Of a stretch of 64,000 bases of DNA, positions 3,313 to 61,165 are shown piece by piece. Made by a program: the position numbers and the translations under genes. Position 1 is the stretch's first letter, and every line of letters begins with the position of its first letter. Origin of the DNA: Ginglymostoma cirratum (taxonomy: Eukaryota); contig JAHRHZ010000110.1 in the NCBI GenBank assembly GCA_024137785.1, forward strand, positions 558,001-622,000. The letters are read 5' to 3'. The notes under the pieces are model-generated. The model had not been told where the DNA came from. It saw only the letters and a list, made by a program, of their open reading frames with translations, and ran no database searches.

Positions 3313-4439
3313 GTTGTGTGCTTTCCCCTTACATGCTATAGTCATGATGTTAACACAGATACAAGTTGCAATGGTAACAATCGAAAGGTGAACAGCCAGC
3401 AAAGATAATCACAGTCACTGCTCCACTTTAGCAGCACCGACTTTGTGAAGCTGTGAGTTTCGTTGGCAAAGGAATCATACTTGTCCCCAGGGAAGTGCCA
3501 TTCACCTTATCGAGTCTGCTCAGCCACTCAATGAGATCACCACTGTTCTTATAAATCTCAACTCCACATTCCTGCTTTTTCTCCACAATGTGAGATAAAC
3601 TCGAGCCTACTCACGACACTGTATGCCCTGTTATTTTTCGGTAGTTTAGATTACTTTAATGACCTGTGCGTATTTACAGGAAATTGAACAATATGAAACG
3701 AGCTGAAAAGCTCAACTTATATCTTCGCAGTTAGGCCACTGAGTTTGTCTGGTTGCGGGCTCGGGAATTGGAATTATGTAATCGTCTGCAGCAGTGGTTA
3801 CTTCCCTTTGTGAGAGAACTCGTGAAGTAACAGATGTAAACCTTGAATGAGGAATTATATCCAAGGTCGTAGCCCACAAAAACTATATTATTTCCACCTG
3901 AATATAATTTACATTTACCAAGTGAAAATAAGAAAAAATGTTTTCATTTTGAGACATAACAAATGTGATACAACCACTCAGCCCATAGAGCCTGCATTCG
4001 CCATTCAATGAAATCATGGGCGACCTCCTACTTCAATGTCATTTTCCAGCGCTATCCCGTGAATTTTTGATGCTTTTAATCGAAAGGAATCTGTCAATCT
4101 CAGTTTTGTACAGTCTGAATGCTGGGCATTCACATCCTCCAAGGCCCTGAATTCCATTGACTTTCTCCACTCATTTCATTCTGCCATTTGGCAAGAATTT
4201 CTGTTGTGTTTCTGGTGCTCCTCCTGGCCCCTCCAGCACTGTGCTTATTTTGCTTTTCCTCGGGGATCGTTGTGAAGCTTCGTGGTCAGTACTCGAAATT
4301 GTAGCCACAGCAACCTTGGCTCAAATCCGAATCACAGTAGTGTTTATTGACCCCGTTTTCTTTTTTCTTAATATGTGCAATATTAATTCAGTAGAGGATC
4401 AATTACTATTGCAAGAAGGCATACAGAGGCGTGTGAAAT

Positions 4440-4726: not shown

Positions 4727-5086
4727 ATCAAATATGTCTTTTCGAACAACATTAGACACATCTTGGTTTTCGATTAATTTACAGACTACTTAGTTTCAAT
4801 CTTTTCCTGGGAAAACATCACTTTCATTGTGAGCATCAGGAAAGGAGACCATTAATTTGCCAAAAATTAAATATCATTAACCTTTGTTTGCTTCATGCAC
4901 AATAACATCAAATATGTCTTTTCGAACAACATTAGACACATCTTGATTTTCGATTAATTTACAGACTACTGAGTTTCAGTCTTTTCCTGGGAAACCATCA
5001 CTTTCATTGTGAGCGTCAGGAAAGGAGACCATTAATTTGCCAAAAATAAAATATTATTAACCTTTGTTTGTTTCATGCACAATAAC
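4727..5086. repeat. 180-bp tandem duplication (2 copies)
   Basis: 4727-4906 and 4907-5086 align without gaps; 8 substitutions counted by eye. Confidence 0.95.
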
Positions 5087-5149
5087 ACTCAGATTCCTCT
5101 GCACAATACCTTTTTTTTGATGCTTCTCTAGATTTTAATAGTAGCCTTC

Positions 5150-6010
5150 TTTTTCACTCTTTCTAGCGAGATACATGACCTCACACTCCCGGCATGAAAC
5201 TGCATATGCCAAGGTTTTGACCACTCACTCAACCGATCTGTTTCCCTTTGCAGATTCCAAAGTCGTCTTCATAACATGCCCTCCTAACTATTTTGTATCT
5301 TCTGCAAAATTGGATACATTATGTTCTGCTATTTCCTCCAAATCATTAATATAAAGATAAATAATTGCAACCCTCTAACTCACCATTCTGGCACTCCACA
5401 AATTACATCTTTCCAACTCGAAAAATATCCATTAATCCCGATACTGACTCATCCATTATTGAAACAATATGCAGCCCATGCTCATTTAGACTCTCAACTC
5501 CTACCTTGTGCAGTGACCTTTTATATGGCCGCTTATTGAGTGCCTTCTAAAAGTTCAAATGCACTTCACCCACTGGCTCCTTTAACAACTGTGCGTGGAA
5601 TATTACGGAAGATCTCCAGCAAAATTGTCAAATGTGATCCGCCTTTCAACAAACGTTGTTGACTCAGTTTGACTGTAATAACCTTTTCTAAACTTCCCCT
5701 ATTTCTTCCATTACAATGGTCTCAAGCATTTTTCAAATGACAGGTAATACATTGAAGCATACGGAAGTTATTTGGCCCATCAGGTCAAATACATCTTTAA
5801 ATGAGATCATAGCAGATTTGATAATCCTCCACTCCACTTTTCTGCCTTATCACTTTGGTCCTCGAATCCCTAAATGACTAAATCTCTGCCTGTCTCAGCC
5901 GTGAACACACAACACTCTGTTGGAAGAATTCCACAGATTTGTTCTCCTCTGAGCGGGACAACATCCTCCTCATCTCTGTCTTAATAGACAACCCCTTCCC
6001 TTACGCACCT
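5150..6010 (-). mobile_element. Old CR1 LINE fragments (RT region and 3' UTR)
   Basis: Degenerate antisense CR1 RT and 3' end motifs similar to the intact element at 58335-59160. Confidence 0.5.
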
Positions 6011-6303
6011 GGGTGTAAATCAGGGCACAGAAAACCCCTAATGTTAAGTATGAACTGGTGGCTTATCCAGCAACAATTGTGAGTATTTGAAACATTTTCA
6101 TTTTTAACCTTTGGTTAAACAAACTGCCCTGATTTGCACATTGGATTGGCCAATTACGAATCTGCTTCAAAAACACTTCAGTAGATGTGATTTAGATGGT
6201 GGTGAAAGGTGTTTTCAAAATACAAAGACCTCTTTCTTTCTAGATCCATTGACCTGACTCCTGATCTCTCTGCTCATGGAAATCGATCCTTCCCATTCAG
6301 TCA

Positions 6304-6830
6304 GAGATATAAAGAACTGCCGATGCTGGAATCAGCGATAACACAGTGTGGAGCTGGAAGAGCACAGCAAACATACAGCATCAGAGAATCTGGAAAGTTG
6401 ACGTTTCGGTCGGGACTCATCTTCGAGAATGGGGGAGGGTGAAGGGAGCTCTGAAATAAATAGAGAGGAGGGTGGGGCTGGGATGGTGATAGGTGAATGG
6501 CCTGTGATAGGCCTTGGGAGCAGACAATCCATTGGTCTCATTGTGGACTTTAACAGTTTCAAAATCTTCCCACCCTGGCCTCATCCCATGACCAACCCTT
6601 CCTCTCAGCCCACCTCCTTGACCTGACACAACCTGTCCATCTTCTCTCCCACATTTCCGCTTCTCCCACCTCACTGACCAATCTCCACCATTGCCTACCT
6701 CCACTCACCTATCACCATTCCACCGACCTTCCCCAGCCTCACCCCTCCTCTTGATTTATTTCAGACCTCCCTTCACCCTCCCCCATTTCTGAATGCTTCC
6801 CGACCTACTGTGTTCCTCCAGCTCCATTCT
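6304..6830. mobile_element. Penelope-like element 3' remnant with an inverted terminal copy
   Basis: 6304-6500 is the reverse complement of ~6700-6830. The middle encodes LGSRQSIGLIVDFNSF, resembling the C-terminus of the PLE GIY-YIG ORF. Decayed hammerhead-like GAAACGTC on the minus strand at ~6400-6428. Confidence 0.65.
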
Positions 6831-7081
6831 GTTAACAATGAAAACATTCCTAACGTTTGGCTGAAATCAATGTTGAAACAGGGAGTAGTCCGAAAGCATC
6901 ATAGGTACACTCTAGTTCTCGAAAATGTAGTTCAATGCAATCTCCCAGCATCCTCCTCCATTCTGATCAAAGAAAACGCGACAAGCAATACAAGAATAGT
7001 GGCACGGTCAAGATAAACCGAATGCTCATCTTTCCTATTTTAACCATTCCATGAGAAATATTAAACAAGACCGTTACCACT

Positions 7082-7163
7082 GTAGTCGGGGCCGACTGGT
7101 TAAGGTGATGGATTAGAAATCCTTTGGCGTTTCCCCATGCAGAGTCGAGTCCTGCCCAGCTCG
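7082..7163 (+). tRNA. tRNA-Ser(AGA), degenerate, probable pseudogene
   Basis: 82 nt colinear with vertebrate Ser-AGA (GTAGTCG...GGTTAAGGTGATGGATTAGAAATCC). T-loop and acceptor 3' strand mutated. Confidence 0.8.
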
Positions 7164-7450
7164 TTCAGCTTCGAGCTTGCTCAGCTTCGTTCAATGACTT
7201 CCTGAGGGGTAAGCTATCTCCCAAGCACTGGGAAAATCCTTCTCATGAACACACTTCAAATTCTGGTCATTTGTTGGCCTTCATGAAACATGAGTTCTGA
7301 ATAAGAATGCTGCCATGCTCAAAACCTTGCCTCTTCCTCTCTTTCAACAGATACCACTCAATATGTTTAGTTTCTGCAGTATTCTCTGAGTTTAATCTAC
7401 ACAAATGATCTTGCTTGAAATATCTTGAATCCCAGTCCCGTGGTAACTGA

Positions 7451-7650
7451 GATAATAGGTACTGCAGATGCTGGAGAATCCGAGATAACAAGGTGTGGAG
7501 CTGGATAAACACAGCAGGCCGAGCAGGAAAGCTTGACGTTTCGGGCCTGGACCCTTCATCTGATGAAGGGTCTCGGCCCGAAGCATCAAGCTTTCCTGCT
7601 CCTATGATGCTGCTTGGCCTGCTGTGTTCATCCAGCTCCACACCTTTTTA
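7451..7650. mobile_element. Palindromic PLE-derived mini-element with hammerhead-like cores and TSD
   Basis: Inverted arms meet at CCCTTCATC/TGATGAAGGG (~7560). Flanking 14-bp near-direct repeats at 7437-7450 and 7651-7664 (2 mismatches). Confidence 0.75.
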
Positions 7651-8421
7651 CCCCTAGTAACTGACCCTGCTCACTGGCTACAGTTTCTCCCGACATCATC
7701 CCACTCATCCCCACCGCTCCCTCCCCCACTGTGATAAACAGCCCCAGGAAATCTTCACTTAAACCTCTTTGCTCCAAAAAGGAACACTTCCGGCGTCGGG
7801 AATCCCTTCATTGAACGGGATTTCCTCATCCCTGGACATGTTGCATGGTGGAGCATTGTAAAAATATTTTGGGAAAATATTGTCAGTTGGTGGGGGACGG
7901 GTAGCGGGAATGTTAGGGAAGAAAAACAGAAAACCTTGACTCCAACTTTGCGAATATTTAGAAACGCTTGGGAACCGGAATCACAGGAGATTGAAGGGTG
8001 AACTTTCCGACTGAACACAAACAGTCTAGACACCAACCCCTTCTTTAAGGGTTCAGGACATTGACTCTGATGTTCTCGGGACATGAACTGACCTGAGACA
8101 TTGAAAGAATTCTCCTTCCTGCATATCAAGGATTCAAAACTTCATCTCGGCTCCGAGACAATGAGAGAACTCGGGAATAGACAAGACACTGAAAGGCTCG
8201 AAGGGAGACGGCCCCAGATGTAAGAGAGCGGTTCCAGGTGACGTAGATGTGTCTGCGGCGGGTAGGATCAGACTCTCCCCATGTCTCCAAAATGAATATG
8301 GCAGGCTTCATTTCGGAAAAGTAAAACTGATTGAGAACAATTGTCATTCCAAGAGAGGCAGGCCGAAGCTTGAATTCACCAAGAGCCTACTTTAAGGGAT
8401 CGTGCAAGTTACTGTTCGTTA

Positions 8422-8495
8422 ATCTCTGAGACGTAAGTGGTCAGCATATTCGGCTATTAAGTGAGAAGTCGACCATTCGAGGCCACATACGAAAG
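8422..8495 (+). pseudogene. Decayed tRNA-Asn relic
   Basis: 74 nt colinear with Asn-GTT (TCTCTG...GGTCAGCATATTCGGCTATTAA...TTCGAGGCCAC). Confidence 0.55.
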
Positions 8496-8951
8496 AACGA
8501 TTAAAGTTTTCTTTGCAACGCAGTTCCGGGTTTTTAATACTGTTAGGAAAGTACTCCTCAAATGGAAATCTTATCCAGTTAGTAACCACAAAGGTGTCTC
8601 AATGTTGCTTTAATGTCTAATGTAGAGAGCTGCGGATGTTGGTAATCTGTAACAAAAACAGATATTGCTGGAGAAACTCAACATGTTTGGCAGTACCTGT
8701 GGGAGAAAACAGAGTTCAGAAACATTGACTCTGATTCTCTGCCAGATCTGCTGAGCTTTTCTTGAAATTTATGCTGTTGTGTTCAAATGGATATTTATCC
8801 CATCTATTGGGTTGACACAGCCAGACTCATTATGCACTGAATTTAATCCTTGAGAAATGAGAGAAGTGGTTGGATTCAAACAAACCTAGCAATGATTCAG
8901 TCTTCCTCAGCCCCACAGGTAGAAAGACCTAGAAAGGAGAGGCGCGGAAAA

Positions 8952-9016
8952 GATTAAGGCAATAGCCGTGAAATCCATTGGGGTGTTCTGTGTAAGTTCG
9001 CATCCTGCCGACTACA
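8952..9016 (+). pseudogene. 5'-decayed tRNA-Ser(TGA) relic
   Basis: TTAAGGCAAT...TGAAATCCATTGGGGT...GTTCGCATCCTGCCGACTAC matches the Ser 3' two-thirds. Paralog of 57916-57998. Confidence 0.7.
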
Positions 9017-10517
9017 TTTGATTGCTTCAGGCAAGTAAGAAAGGAGTTTGGTCCCCGTCTTCTTGTTTGCGCAGGTAATCACAGGAGGTGGGGGACAAAA
9101 CCATTTCACTCAAATCGCCAACGGAAGGAATATGCATTTCGCCGCCTCTCAGAACAGAACCAGCAGAAACTCTCGTGTGCATCCCGACCTGAATAAAATT
9201 TCCAGTTCCTCTGATGCTGCCTGTCCTGCTGTGTTCCTCCAGCTCCCCCGACTGTGTTATCTCTGACTCTAGCATCTGCAGTTCTCACTGAATCATTTAG
9301 GTGGACATTTGCATTGCTTATCTTGTTGAGGCTATAAGCCAAGTGCTGGGCAGTGAAACTGGAACAGTCAGGGGCTGGAGTTCATCTGGCACAGACATGA
9401 TGAGCTGAATTGTCGTTTTCTTTGCTGGAGACCTCGATGGCCAGCTGTGGTCAGTTCAGCTGTGAAGTGATAGGACAACGTTTTCAAAATGCACCGGAGC
9501 GAGGAAGGGGTCAAACCGATTGCCCCCTGATCTGGCTGTCAGACACATTATCCACTGGGATTGGGGATAACTGGCTCTATGCATATTCCTGGAATCAGTA
9601 ACTGGGAGAATCAGGAAAATGCAATGCTGATGTCTCTATGCCCAGCAGTGTGCAAACCCATCGCTTCTCTCTCCCTTCCTTGTGCCTTACTTTCCCTGGA
9701 CCTGCTGTCAAGGTAAAGATTGACTTCACAATCTGCCTGTGTTTGTACCAAGCATCTCATTGACCTTGGAGCTGTGCTGTCAGAGACAGCTAGAGGTGAG
9801 ACACGGACACAGGCAGGAAGAGATGCGACATGAAAGTCTTTAGAGTCTGTCGTGTGTCAGTTGCTTTTAGTGAGGAATTTCTGCCGGGCGCTGTCCTGTC
9901 AGATTCCCAGGAGCTGCAGTAATTGGTTTGATGAGTTTTCGAAATGGAAAGTTGCACGTGAGCAGCCTGTGGGACTATTTCAGCTCAACTGTCCATTTTA
10001 TATCCCAGCTCATGGAAATGGTTCTCATTGTTGGGAGAAGTCACTTGTGATTCACCTAAGGCTGCCTTTTGTCGCAGGAACCTTTGTGTGGGGACGGAGA
10101 ACGGACGTGAAGGTCATCGAGCGGGTATAATCCTATGGTCTCTGTCACTCTCGGGGATGTGTCTGTGTGTTGCCCTCTGTGGGTGAAAATGAAGATGAGT
10201 TCTTCAAGGAGGGATTGACATAGTTTTACCATCTCAAACTATAGTCCCATTTGTTGTGTTATGTGAGATCACAGAGATAAACTCATTGACATTTGCCTTG
10301 TAAAGTCAGAGCACACAAGGCTATGAACCAAATGGTGGAAACTAGGACGAGAATGGATGGGTTTTGATGACCTGCACTGAAACGGTGGGCCGAATGGTCG
10401 TCTTTCACGCTGTAAAATGAAAATCTTAGGTGGAGAAACCGATCTGCAGCGAAAGTGATCACACATGAAAAAGCAAAAGCAGGTCACTAAGGAAAGACAC
10501 AACCTTTTTGGTCTTGT

Positions 10518-10589
10518 TCCCTGATGGTCCAGTGGTTAGGATTTGACAATTTCACCGCCGCGGCCCAAGAGCAATTCCCCGTAAGGGAA
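10518..10589 (+). pseudogene. tRNA-Glu(TTC) pseudogene
   Basis: TCCCTGATGGTCCAGTGGTTAGGATT...TTTCACCGCCGCGGCCC...AAGGGAA, 72 nt. B-box lost. Confidence 0.85.
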
Positions 10590-27712: not shown

Positions 27713-28912
27713 CGACATCACAGTTCATTGTAGCCTGCTTTCATGCCTGAAGCTGCGTAATCTTTTCTCACTTGCTTTCCATGTGAAGACGTCCTCGTTC
27801 AATGCCTTGTAGAAGCTTGCTTTTCTGGTGTCACAGTGCAACACGGATTCATGATTTACCCTCTCTTTTGAATGCATCTCAAGTTAGTCTCTGAAAGGTC
27901 TAATTCTGATATTATCTGCCATGCCTCAATATGTGTGAATCAAAACTAGAAGTCCTCAGTAACGTTTTAGTGTCGACAAACATGTTGGCATTTCTTAGCA
28001 CATGAGCGTCTCGTTCGGTCAACAACGGAAATGAATGGATTTACCGACTCTGAAAAAAGCTCTTGATTCACGCTCCGACACAGTCACGAATATAAAGGTG
28101 TGCTCTGAAATTTAAGCCATGTTGTAAATGAAACTGAGGTAAAGATAGTCAGACTACCTAATGACATTGTATCCATTTTTGTGATATCACAAAAAAGGCT
28201 GTGTTTCCCAGCTGCGTTGGTTATCGAAAGCGGAATGCCCCCAGCATGACATCGGGTACAAGCAGGCTGTACTGCTGCTTCATGTTACAGGCAACTTGCG
28301 TTGCTCATCCTCTTCACTGAAAGCGAATGAAAATTGTTATACCATTTCTGCGGTGAAATCAAATCCAGCATGAATTCTAATCGCAGTTATTTGCTGTGGT
28401 GGAGAAAAGGAGGCAATTGTGATGTGAAATTTTGTTAAATTTCTCTCATTTCCTTAATTTCTGACCTGGAGAAGGGAACTGATGAGACGCCTTCTCGATC
28501 CACTGCAATCGTTGCCATGCAGGCACACCCGCATTTTTGATCAGAAGGGAAACCCAGCCTCTTTGAGACTGTGATTGCTAATCGTCAACTTTCAGGGGTC
28601 ATTCTCATTCTGTTCTTTTTTTTCTTATTTGAGCATTTTCCGGAAAGTGATGTTGGACTAAACTCCCAGTATAATTGGAAGCGCAGTTTGGAATTACCGA
28701 GCTGCCACTTGTGTGAGTGGTTCGTGACACAGGCAAGTTGAGGTGTCTTACCGACACCTTTCGTGCTTTGGTGTGTCTGCAACTGCGTTTGCCTTCTCAT
28801 TTTGGCTTCGGTTGCAAGTTAAGAGCTGTTTGTTTGGGTCTTCGTTCAATTACTGAGGAGCGAACATGATTATCTTCCTGCAGCCAAAAAAGTTAAAGGC
28901 TAAGGAGCCCTT

Positions 28913-38684: not shown

Positions 38685-38769
38685 AGCCTCATACAGGATT
38701 CTAACCTGCTACTTCTCACACTTACGGCATCCGACTGAAATGAGAATCAGACCACGAGACCAACGACCT
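38685..38769 (-). pseudogene. tRNA-Pro (CGG-derived) relic with a 13-nt insertion at the intron position
   Basis: 36-nt exon AGGTCGTTGGTCTCGTGGTCTGATTCTCATTTCAGT | CGGATGCCGTAAG (38721-38733) | 36-nt exon TGTGAGAAGTAGCAGGTTAGAATCCTGTATGAGGCT. Confidence 0.7.
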
Positions 38770-40070: not shown

Positions 40071-40949
40071 TGGTTGGTTTTCGCATTTTCTAGGTTTTAA
40101 ATTTGACTTGTGGCATGTACCTTCAAGAATGAATGCAAAAACCTTCATTGCTGTTGTGTAATGCTCTGTTGCACACGTGTGTCTCACCTGTGTAAACCTT
40201 TGTCTAATTTCCCACGTTTTGTTTGTTCCACATTCTAATTTCATTAAGAATCACAACATTTGTCACGACGCAGATGGAGGCCATGCAGTCCAATTTCGAT
40301 GTGCCACTCTCCGCAATGAGTAAATGGGAGTCTATTGCAATATAATTCTATTGCCTTCTCCATGTAACTCTACCCATTGTTACTTGTGACATAACCATCA
40401 AATTCCCTTGTGTATTGATTGAATCTGCGTCCTTAGTACTGTTAGACTGACCCTACCACCCTCTGTTCAAAACTTGAAACTGGCCAGCTTTCTGTTCTCC
40501 AAGGAGAGCTTTCCCAAATTTCTGATCCATCTTCATTGCTGACATTCCTCATACATGGCATCATTCACCTGAATCTGTGAAACACTGTCTTCGGTCACTT
40601 CACATCCCCGCTTCCAGAATTTTCACGCCCAGAAGTGAGCAATAATGCAGCTGGACCACACATTCCGAGTCAGATTGGTTGGGCGAACATCCTGAAGCAC
40701 TTGCTTTCGCTTTGAACATGTGGTTCTTTTGGCCGTAGTCACTACAATCCTACCTCTACCCCATCCCCACTTCAGACAACCCAACCTCATTTAACGAAAC
40801 TGTTTTATCGGAAAGCTCTAGCAGGAAGCCTGGGTTCGTCCTCTAGTTGAACCCAGGTCTTCTCGTTTGTTATTACTTTACCCTTCCTTAGGCGAGAATC
40901 AATACCCCTAGTCCAATGAGCCTCACACAGTTGAGGCAAAGGTGAGCAC

Positions 40950-43635: not shown

Positions 43636-44210
43636 CACTGCTCATATGCAGGCCAGTTTCCCTAGAATATATGTTAAACAATGTTTCACGTCTGTGGCTT
43701 GCCCATTGTTTGAGTAAATGCTCGCTTACCCTAGTGTAAGAAGTAAAACACAAGCTCTTCATCATGGGATTTAATTGCACGTTCACCTCCCTCTGGGCAG
43801 CAAATTCGGTCAGTTGGTTACGGCACGGTCTTAATGATGTTATACTGATATTTTATTACTTAGCCTAGAGGCACCAAATTTTATTTTTCAATTCATCAGG
43901 ATTTTCAAGCTCCTCCTTTGCAGCAGAGTGACAGTGAGTTCAAAAAGAGATGTCCCTCATCAACAGCAATTCCTTTCCTGTTCCTCAACAGAGTTGCAAT
44001 GATTTTTCTCCAACAAGAAGAGCTGAAACCACAGTCCCACAACCTCTCTTCACATTAACAGTGAGCCTGAATTTTACACTCTGTGTCGAGAGCAGGGAGA
44101 CAGAATGAAGATGCTCTTGAAATTCTTTGCTGAATCCCAAGAGCAACGTGGAATGTATTTCAGTCTCAGTGAGTCTTCACTGCCCGGGCTGCTAGTGACA
44201 GCACACCAGG

Positions 44211-44301
44211 GGCTCGTTGGTAACGGGGTATGACTCGCCTTTTGGCTGTAGTGCAATGCGAATAAGCAGAGAGCTCCCGGGTTCAAATCGTGGACAATCC
44301 C
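44211..44301 (+). pseudogene. tRNA-Pro(TGG) relic with 19 extra nt after the anticodon
   Basis: GGCTCGTTGG..GGGGTATGA..TTTGGC | TGTAGTGCAATGCGAATAA | ..GAGAGCTCCCGGGTTCAAATC..GGAC..CCC; 91 nt vs 72 canonical. Confidence 0.75.
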
Positions 44302-45341
44302 TGCTTACTTGTGTTCGTTTTTTGCCAATTTGCCTGATGAGCTTTCCGAAAAAAAGTCATGTTCAATTCTGTCGGACTTCCTGACTTCGGGATGGTGTAG
44401 AGGTGACATTGCAGCCAATAAGGCAAAGGGAAACACATACTGAAAGCGAAAACAAGCGTCTGAAGAAGTTTACGTACACAATCAGACATTCAATGAATAC
44501 TCCAGAAAAAAAAATTCTGGTGAAGTTGAAGCATATTAATTGCAATGTGTTCGATGGTCAGGACGCCTTGCTGCTTCAGACAGCAGCTTCCTCCCGTTGA
44601 CATGGAAATTTGTGAATTACAAGATGATCATGACAACAATAAATGAAATCAAATCAACCTAAGGATCAGCATATCAGAGACAGAATCAAAATGCAGGCAC
44701 CGTCATTACGACAGATATCATGCTCCTGAATAATGCCAGAGAGTTTCCAGAGGCTCGATGTGCTGAACGGCTTCTTTCTGCACGGGAATGCCGCCACAAG
44801 TGAGATTTTCACTCGGATTCGCTTAATCTGGGATTGTTCGTGAAAGATATTAACTCCTGGCAGGCCGCAGGAAACAAACTGACTCCTGCATTGTATTAGT
44901 CTTTTGCAGGATTGCTGTGTGAGGCCGAATCCTGAACATCAAACAGGCTGCACAGAACAAAAAAATCTCAAACCGATTTAACTGAGCGATGTCTCTTGTG
45001 TCCGTTTCTCTCTTTCCCACCAGCTCAGCATCATTCTCTATCTCGGATGAGAGACATTTGGAAGAAGTTGGCAATCAAATTTGTCAATTCCCACGCATGC
45101 ATGTAACTGACCTCCAGGTGTTTGGGAGAGAGCAGAAGGACGTATGCACGCTTCCCTCCCCCTGTACTGCTTGCAAATGGAAGAAAATGGTTTCATAATC
45201 TGCCACTGGAGAGTGCCCTGTCCCAGGGCAAGGGACAAACAACACCGCCAGACAGTATAGAGACAGAATCAAAAGAAAATGTTCTTGAATTTCTCTTCTG
45301 CTTCAAACCCGACTCCGTTGTAGAAATGCAAGTGTTTTACT

Positions 45342-45430
45342 GGTTCGTTGGTCGAGACGCATGATTCACGCTTAGGGGTTTGTATTCAACTAATATGTGA
45401 GAGGTCCAGGCTGAAACGTCGGACGAGCTC
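45342..45430 (+). pseudogene. tRNA-Pro(AGG) relic with an 18-nt insertion at the intron position
   Basis: GGTTCGTTGGTCGAGACGCATGATTCACGCTTAGGG | GTTTGTATTCAACTAATA (45378-45395) | TGTGAGAGGTCCAGGCTGAAACGTCGGACGAGCTC. Confidence 0.8.
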
Positions 45431-45599
45431 TGCTTGTTTGATATTAGATTTGCCAGATCCGACCGATCAGCCTTTCCAAAAAGGCACTGCATTTCATGAG
45501 GTCGGACGTCTTGAAATGAGACTGAGTTTCGGGATCTGAGTGAGCGTGGAACACGTGTTGAAAGTGTAAACAAATGTTTCCGAATGCTTGCCCACGCAG

Positions 45600-59410: not shown

Positions 59411-60185
59411 TGAGATACCTGTTTTCGCTTTCAACACGTGTTTCCTTTGCCCCATCCTCACTTCATGAAGTCTGAAGTGATAAAACGCAGAACTTTTTTG
59501 GGTCAGCTGATCGGGCGATTTGGCAAAATGGCGACAAGCAATACGGGCGCACGTGGCATTTGAATCCATAACCTCTCGCATAACCTATCACACACATCAC
59601 CCAAAACAAAAATGATACCACCAGACCAACGAGGCATTGCAGCTGATTTGCACCGAGCCCTGAACCAGCTGAGACTCACTCGGAATATAGTGCATTCCAC
59701 GTTGATCCTAGAATTCAAAAGTGCAAAAAGTTTCAAGAACATCTTCTCAGTCTGTCTGACAACTGTGTCGCAATGTGCCGCCACCTATGTTGGGTCTGTT
59801 ATGAAGGTGGAACATAATGTATCCAAGGATGGTGATGGTGAATCTGGGGCATTGCCTGCAAGATATCATTCTGTGAATTTGAGATTGATCGTAAATTTAC
59901 AAGAATAACAACTGTCCTTTGCCAGTCTTCTTCTTAAAAAAAAGTCTGTGACTTTCATTGTGGAGACAAGGAAACAGTCTGATCCCACCCCTGCAGAGAC
60001 ATTTGTGTCACCGCGAACCAGCTGTTCTGAAACCCCGGCCATTTCCCTTCGAATCTTTCCACTTCTTGTCTGTCCCCAAGTGTCCGGTTATGCTGCAGCA
60101 GAGATTCCGTTTGATTTCCTGATCTTTTCAAATATTCCTCATTATCTCAATATCTGAGATCAGGTAATGACACTGAGAACAACAG

Positions 60186-61094: not shown

Positions 61095-61165
61095 GAGCTC
61101 GTCTGGGATTTCTCACATTTTCCACATTGCCCAATGTAAGAAGCACACCTCTAGACCAACGAGCC
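61095..61165 (-). pseudogene. tRNA-Pro(TGG) relic with a 12-nt insertion at the intron position and a T-arm deletion
   Basis: Reverse complement GGCTCGTTGGTCTAGAGGTGTGCTTCTTACATTGGG | CAATGTGGAAAA | TGTGAGA-(deletion)-AATCCCAGACGAGCTC. Confidence 0.75.

Follow-up and report, generated by a model that had tools for sequence, protein, structure and literature searches.

A dead copy of a probably spliced, intron-bearing tRNA-Pro gene family in the shark Ginglymostoma cirratum

Vertebrates are usually described as having four intron-bearing tRNA families, and older human listings include a single Pro-AGG entry with an intron, of low score. What keeps tRNA introns in place, and how they come to spread through gene families or vanish from them, is an open question. 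Passages of PMC10275265 name the human families as Tyr-GUA, Ile-UAU, Arg-UCU and Leu-CAA, and describe the eukaryotic tRNA intron by an A-I pair (C32 or U32 with the third-last intron base, a purine) and by pairing with the anticodon loop. The shark tRNA-Pro genes described here resemble the families of those passages in having one short intron, placed between N37 and N38, with an A-I pair and a sequence that varies among genes, and resemble human Arg and Leu in mixing genes with and without introns. They differ in isotype (proline, with all three anticodons, is not among the human four) and in their spread through a large array and a family of retrocopies. The other close precedent is tRNA-Pro(UGG) of Saccharomyces cerevisiae, for which the relevant section of PMC4090602 gives ten intron-containing genes. 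There, too, the proline isotype has a canonical intron, but it occurs in all genes of one isoacceptor and with near-identical sequence, whereas in the shark AGG, TGG and CGG genes are affected, the introns are diverse and intron-less genes coexist. According to a review passage (PMC10275265 or PMC4090602), isodecoder families tend toward all-or-none for introns.

Closest in taxonomy is the Squalomix preprint (10.1101/2025.06.08.657570), whose text reports abundant intron-containing and clustered tRNA loci in shark genomes. That text names no isotype and holds no test of intron position, pairing or gene intactness; Fig. 3A or the supplements may already show Pro. A literature search returned no publication that describes introns in tRNA-Pro genes of sharks or of any other vertebrate, and Pro introns are absent from passages of PMC2680898, PMC8044555, PMC8450103, PMC12530127, PMC13079951, PMC11574265 and PMC1693877. 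The sequence evidence supports a canonical-type tRNA intron in an isotype new for vertebrates: the mechanism is known, and the occurrence would be new or at least undescribed in the literature searched.

The window analysed is a stretch of 64,000 nt (C110:558001-622000) in an assembly of 4.36 Gb and 289 contigs. Within it, the sequence at 45342-45430 is very probably a dead copy of an intron-bearing tRNA-Pro family whose precursors would have been spliced by the ordinary tRNA splicing enzymes (Table 1). Its 5' exon shows five differences from the intact exon found on contig C46, and its insert has the length and the place given in the original prediction. Three bases of the insert would find a partner in the anticodon loop: A at -3 (with U32), T at -5 (with A34) and C at -6 (with G35). 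The copy itself is a pseudogene, because the B-box/T-loop is destroyed and a base of the T arm is lost. It lacks the cloverleaf of a functional tRNA gene, its folding is at the level of shuffled sequences (z 0.03), and neither ARAGORN nor Rfam calls it.

Table 1. Proline tRNA relics of the window (positions 1 to 64,000) and the two intact intron-bearing genes on contig C46
Feature	Position	Strand	Details
Decayed tRNA-Pro(AGG)	45342-45430	+	36-nt 5' exon, 18-nt insert, 35-nt 3' exon
5' exon, positions 1-37	45342-45377	+	Ends in anticodon AGG and G37
18-nt insert at 37/38	45378-45395	+	Directly after G37
3' exon	45396-45430	+	One base missing (T arm), T-loop/B-box destroyed
Decayed tRNA-Pro(TGG), pair partner	44211-44301	+	19-nt insert; 1.13 kb upstream of 45342
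Spacer of TGG/AGG pair	44302-45341	+	84-90% alike contigs in run X5 (records 10, 11, 13)
Decayed tRNA-Pro, anticodon CAG	38685-38769	-	13-nt insert; from CGG (C109 paralog reads CGG)
Decayed tRNA-Pro	61095-61165	-	12-13-nt insert, 13-nt deletion in 3' exon; by alignment to paralog L174
Decayed tRNA-Pro(AGG)	16750-16837	-	About 18-nt insert; 3' exon mostly gone
Decayed tRNA-Pro	40831-40922	-	18-19-nt insert; absent from the original prediction
Decayed tRNA-Pro(TGG)	59545-59635	-	19-nt insert; absent from the original prediction
Intact Pro-AGG	C46:19769922-19770005	-	12-nt insert; T-run terminator
Intact Pro-AGG	C46:19771021-19771111	+	19-nt insert; T-run terminator

The window represents a multi-isotype tRNA array in decay, in which segmental copies are numerous, both direct and inverted (60-84% identity). 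All seven of its Pro relics that retain a 5' half have inserts. In the five of these named beforehand the insert does begin one base 3' of the anticodon, as claimed, at lengths of 12-19 nt; that of the relic at 16750-16837 belongs to the commonest intron family. A two-exon scan with 17 templates finds inserts in every Pro match (4/4 within the window, 8/8 in flanking loci) and in none of the ten non-Pro relics of the window (Lys, three Asn, three Ser, two Arg, and a Val that served as its own template); the insert is thus tied to Pro and not to the array. Nor are the Pro inserts of the window chance matches, because the reversed window yields no match with any of the 17 templates and because exact junction patterns run over the whole genome find 77 insert-bearing Pro matches against six in the backwards control. 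ARAGORN and Rfam call no Pro relic in the window, and a relaxed ARAGORN run makes 114 calls, mostly spurious.

The weak intron-less Pro relic that had been placed at about 15790 is doubtful. It aligns to Pro over just 44 nt, all in the 3' half (score 37), and to the Val relic of the window over 68 nt (score 34); the weak relic at 15779-15849 and 27747-27814 fits Val about equally to Pro. More decayed intron-less tRNA relics lie at 3313, 7082, 8421, 13072, 15431, 24817, 28987, 32004, 52825, 53978, 55075, 57998 and 63558, their types (Arg, Ser, Asn, Lys, Val, Glu) set by eye or by template. The last is not a selenocysteine tRNA: it reads TCA on a body that is Arg-TCG. The CpG observed/expected ratio is 0.57 over the whole window versus 0.24 around the C46 genes.

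The relics at 44211 and 45342 form a TGG/AGG pair that recurs on the small contigs C101, C102, C108, C109, C110, C127, C134 and C163. Paralogs of the AGG member (L005-L018, L025, L026) have D-loop damage in common, and many read GGG in place of AGG; because of this common damage, the pair is one that was copied repeatedly once already dead. A DNA run of another species (run X5, organism B) yields 204 records on the pair. Three pieces 84-90% like the spacer stand at a depth of 956-1009 and others at 10-12. Such contig depths do not translate into copy numbers; coverage of the tRNA parts is almost nil, and a filter drops some records. The contrast in depth fits a homogeneous array with copies in the order of 100 in the relative, and the window would be a decayed offshoot of it. 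Spacer segments 44731-44824 and 45154-45247 reach a summed depth of 5,000-17,000 in the same run, which suggests that parts of the spacer are a cassette repeated beside many array genes. Raw RNA runs on window positions 44120-45520 give one partial read (X21) and zero reads (X22).

Over the whole genome, exact junction patterns find just four insert-less Pro matches (control 1), one of which (L112) is a chance match. A pattern for the 5' core that is blind to the insert finds 21 loci, 15 with insert and six without, and a DNA search with an intron-less copy finds 17 insert-bearing, 11 intron-less and two partial loci (30 loci from 41 matches). With exact patterns for these anticodons no additional intron-bearing Arg family emerges: Arg-CCT is intron-less in 12/12, Arg-CCG in 1/1 and Arg-ACG/TCG in 6/7 (the seventh is no tRNA). 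The positive control, Tyr-GTA, has 13-18-nt inserts in 6/6. All genome counts are lower bounds, because the patterns are exact and the assembly has N runs near tRNA genes. An Rfam search of the genome, in which 63 of about 403,000 candidates were scored, was used only for reference tRNAs. In all, 135 distinct Pro-like sequences were collected, 132 of them with inserts of 9-24 nt (18 nt in 87/132), most loci having come from searches that require the insert.

The original prediction cautioned that all copies of the window are decayed. This is true of the window but not of the genome, where two intact intron-bearing Pro genes are found. A perfect Pro 3' end occurs at seven loci genome-wide, and two of these are Pro-AGG genes that stand head to head on C46, 1015 nt apart, with identical 72-nt exons (72/72) and differing inserts. 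Their exons are one base from intact intron-less Pro-AGG; the exons of decayed copies have a median of nine differences (SINE-fused copies) to 15 (others). The 200-nt flanks of the pair show no likeness beyond that of shuffled sequences (out of 200 shuffles, 45 and 171 score as high), so the exons have been kept constant while all else diverged. Exon-limited gene conversion is possible as the source of the identity, and would itself point to active genes. The combination of C20 with AGG occurs here only in these intron genes, the intact intron-less AGG genes having T20. The spacers of the C46 pair and of the intron-less C16 pair are unrelated. In the surrounding 50 kb, 115 open frames give Pfam matches in four, and these are only reverse transcriptase/RNase H remains; broken remains of that kind lie near the genes at L053:3010-3954, L054:8030-8593 and L171:418-648.

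Rfam (RF00005) gives the 12-nt C46 gene 45.4 bits and has no match to the 19-nt gene at E<=0.1. ARAGORN types the latter (L054:6021-6111) as Leu-TAG and an intron-bearing Pro on C109 (L060:777-866) as Lys-CTT. Such mis-typing, together with the Rfam miss, means that automated annotation may hide intron-bearing Pro genes.

Intact intron-less Pro genes also exist, AGG on C16 and C264 and TGG on C16, so splicing is not needed for all Pro tRNA. One further intron-less TGG gene is readable only in part. The intact TGG gene on C16 (L057:751-822) has a swapped 31-39 anticodon-stem pair and stands head to head with the intact Pro-AGG. The two intact intron-bearing genes, both AGG, are the only ones found; no intact TGG or CGG intron gene was found in the assembly, the best candidate being L028 with three differences including A21. 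Nor was an intact CGG gene of either kind found, although intron-less and intron-bearing CGG relics are present; the assembly therefore seems to lack working genes.

The inserts have the marks of TSEN-type introns: the 37/38 site, short length, the A-I pair, complementarity to the anticodon loop and, for some, an intact gene around them. In a scan left free over 36 sites, 37/38 is among the best junctions in 116 of the 132 insert-bearing sequences, and in both C46 genes the insert lies exactly there, as predicted. The introns fall into 22 sequence clusters over AGG, TGG and CGG genes with differing leaders and trailers, which bears out the expectation of several distinct introns; the largest cluster holds 50/116 sequences, and many of the 18-nt introns have a few end bases in common. 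A purine at -3 (the A-I pair) is found in both C46 genes and in 109 of 116 well-anchored inserts (the 135 sequences minus 19 that are intron-less or poorly anchored). By cluster it is present in 21/22, versus 52% purine over intron bases.

The strongest pattern concerns base -5, which faces N34. Among 85 inserts of 18 nt it is T in 39/43 AGG genes and a purine in 17/20 TGG genes. The copies are related and counts over copies overstate significance, so the tally was repeated by cluster: T stands at -5 in 6/7 AGG clusters versus 0/11 TGG clusters (p 3.8e-4; tallied by hand, 4/22 clusters with other anticodons dropped, and the clusters still not fully independent). Over the same 85 inserts, positions 32-35 pair with -3 to -6 at rates of 0.94, 0.95, 0.86 and 0.82, and among the 18-nt inserts none of five slid registers yields four pairs in a row. 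In the predicted fold of the 19-nt C46 precursor the anticodon-intron helix is extended and the 3' site lies in a 3-nt bulge (fold z -2.0); the 12-nt precursor forms the A-I pair and little other pairing (z -1.1). Covariation of -5 with N34 is the best evidence that the inserts were under selection as TSEN substrates. Together with the intact C46 pair, this anticodon-intron pairing supports the prediction that the lineage has, or had, spliced tRNA-Pro genes.

Directed by the A and B boxes inside such a gene, RNA polymerase III would begin some 7 nt upstream of it and stop at the T run, after which the ends of the precursor would be trimmed. TSEN would measure from the tRNA body, aided by the helix of 4-6 bp between 32-35 and -3 to -6, and cut after G37 and before U38; RTCB would then ligate the exons to a normal tRNA-Pro. 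On this model the window would descend from a multi-isotype array whose working copies probably lie mostly outside the assembly, as an offshoot that has decayed and undergone segmental duplication. The dispersed copies would be pre-tRNAs that became fused to a SINE as reverse transcription switched template from SINE RNA.

Dispersed copies of this kind make up 49 of the 135 sequences, each joined in the same sense to a SINE head, on 40 contigs by manual count. The upstream flanks of 25 copies in the largest cluster resemble one another no more than background up to -8 and abruptly more from -7 on, and these copies have about 10 nt of trailer in common; the junction to the SINE falls 4-25 nt behind the gene, at varied places. 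Likeness from -7, trailer, SINE head and dispersal together are what a retroposed pre-tRNA/SINE chimera would leave, and the 49 copies, with their 7-nt leader and trailer, are likely fossils of germline pre-tRNA. A search for target-site duplications gives only scattered 9-15-nt matches with mismatches, which do not establish such duplications (no null was computed). The insert is kept in 48/49, a share inflated by the way the copies were fetched. Passages of 10.1101/2025.02.02.635956 describe comparable small RNA/LINE-1 chimeric retro-insertions, tRNA/LINE-1 among them, in which a Pol III RNA is likewise fused to a retroelement and dispersed. Those chimeras contain tRNA halves, mostly antisense, with target-site duplications, whereas the shark copies are whole unspliced precursors with leader and trailer, in the same sense and with a SINE head, and target-site duplications are not detected.

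Spliced precursors may also have been caught. One intron-less SINE-fused retrocopy (L044) shows C59 together with an AGG trailer, both characteristic of the main intron family (C59 in 15/25 of its members), and possibly derives from a spliced precursor (n=1). It could also come from an unseen intron-less gene, because intron-less source genes outside the assembly must exist: four other intron-less SINE-fused copies (L211, L215, L216, L220) have A59 or G59 and T-rich trailers, two being of CGG type, and their source genes were not found in the assembly. In L234 (C100) a Pro precursor is represented by its 5' part alone, which ends a few bases after G37 and is fused to a SINE head; it could be a cleaved precursor.

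The alternative that survives best, though we think it improbable, is that the inserts belong to unspliced Pol III tRNA-like repeats of the SINE-head type, and that working tRNA-Pro comes entirely from intron-less genes. Most copies are indeed decayed, many are SINE-fused, intact intron-less AGG and TGG genes exist, and no spliced read was seen. Against this, the C46 pair retains every exon base while inserts and flanks differ, a repeat has no reason to keep -5 following base 34 across unrelated clusters, and SINE junctions at many places are unlike one master element. Still less credible is an origin of the inserts in a single chance insertion, suffered by one pseudogene and then spread by segmental duplication and retroposition. 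Segmental duplication is strong in the window, and both the dominance of one cluster and the common end bases of many 18-nt introns would fit, but the 22 clusters span 9-24 nt on genes with three anticodons and differing leaders and trailers, the insert covaries with the anticodon, and the two intact genes outside the array have dissimilar introns; the C46 pair largely refutes this account. That the 19-nt C46 gene is an unspliced tRNA with a long variable arm, as its ARAGORN call of Leu might suggest, is scarcely believable: the Pro gene beside it has the same exons, these differ from intact intron-less Pro-AGG in one base, and the extra bases lie in the anticodon loop and not in the variable arm.

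The preferred reading, a family of tRNA-Pro genes with TSEN-type introns, likely adds proline to the spliced tRNA types of vertebrates, over and above the human four. A broader version, which we offer tentatively and consider rather doubtful as a whole, is that most shark tRNA-Pro, with all three anticodons, is made by way of intron-bearing precursors whose genes form a high-copy array, a fifth spliced family of vertebrates gained in, or kept only by, the cartilaginous fishes, and that SINE-fused retrocopies preserve both unspliced and spliced precursors, so that gain, spread and loss could be dated. Intact intron-bearing and intron-less Pro genes, more than 100 datable dead copies and retroposed precursors in one genome would permit direct tests of intron gain and loss. 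One and the same mature tRNA, arising both from genes with an intron and from genes without, would offer a test of intron-dependent modification, and an anticodon-intron helix that covaries with the anticodon would offer one of what TSEN requires of its substrates.
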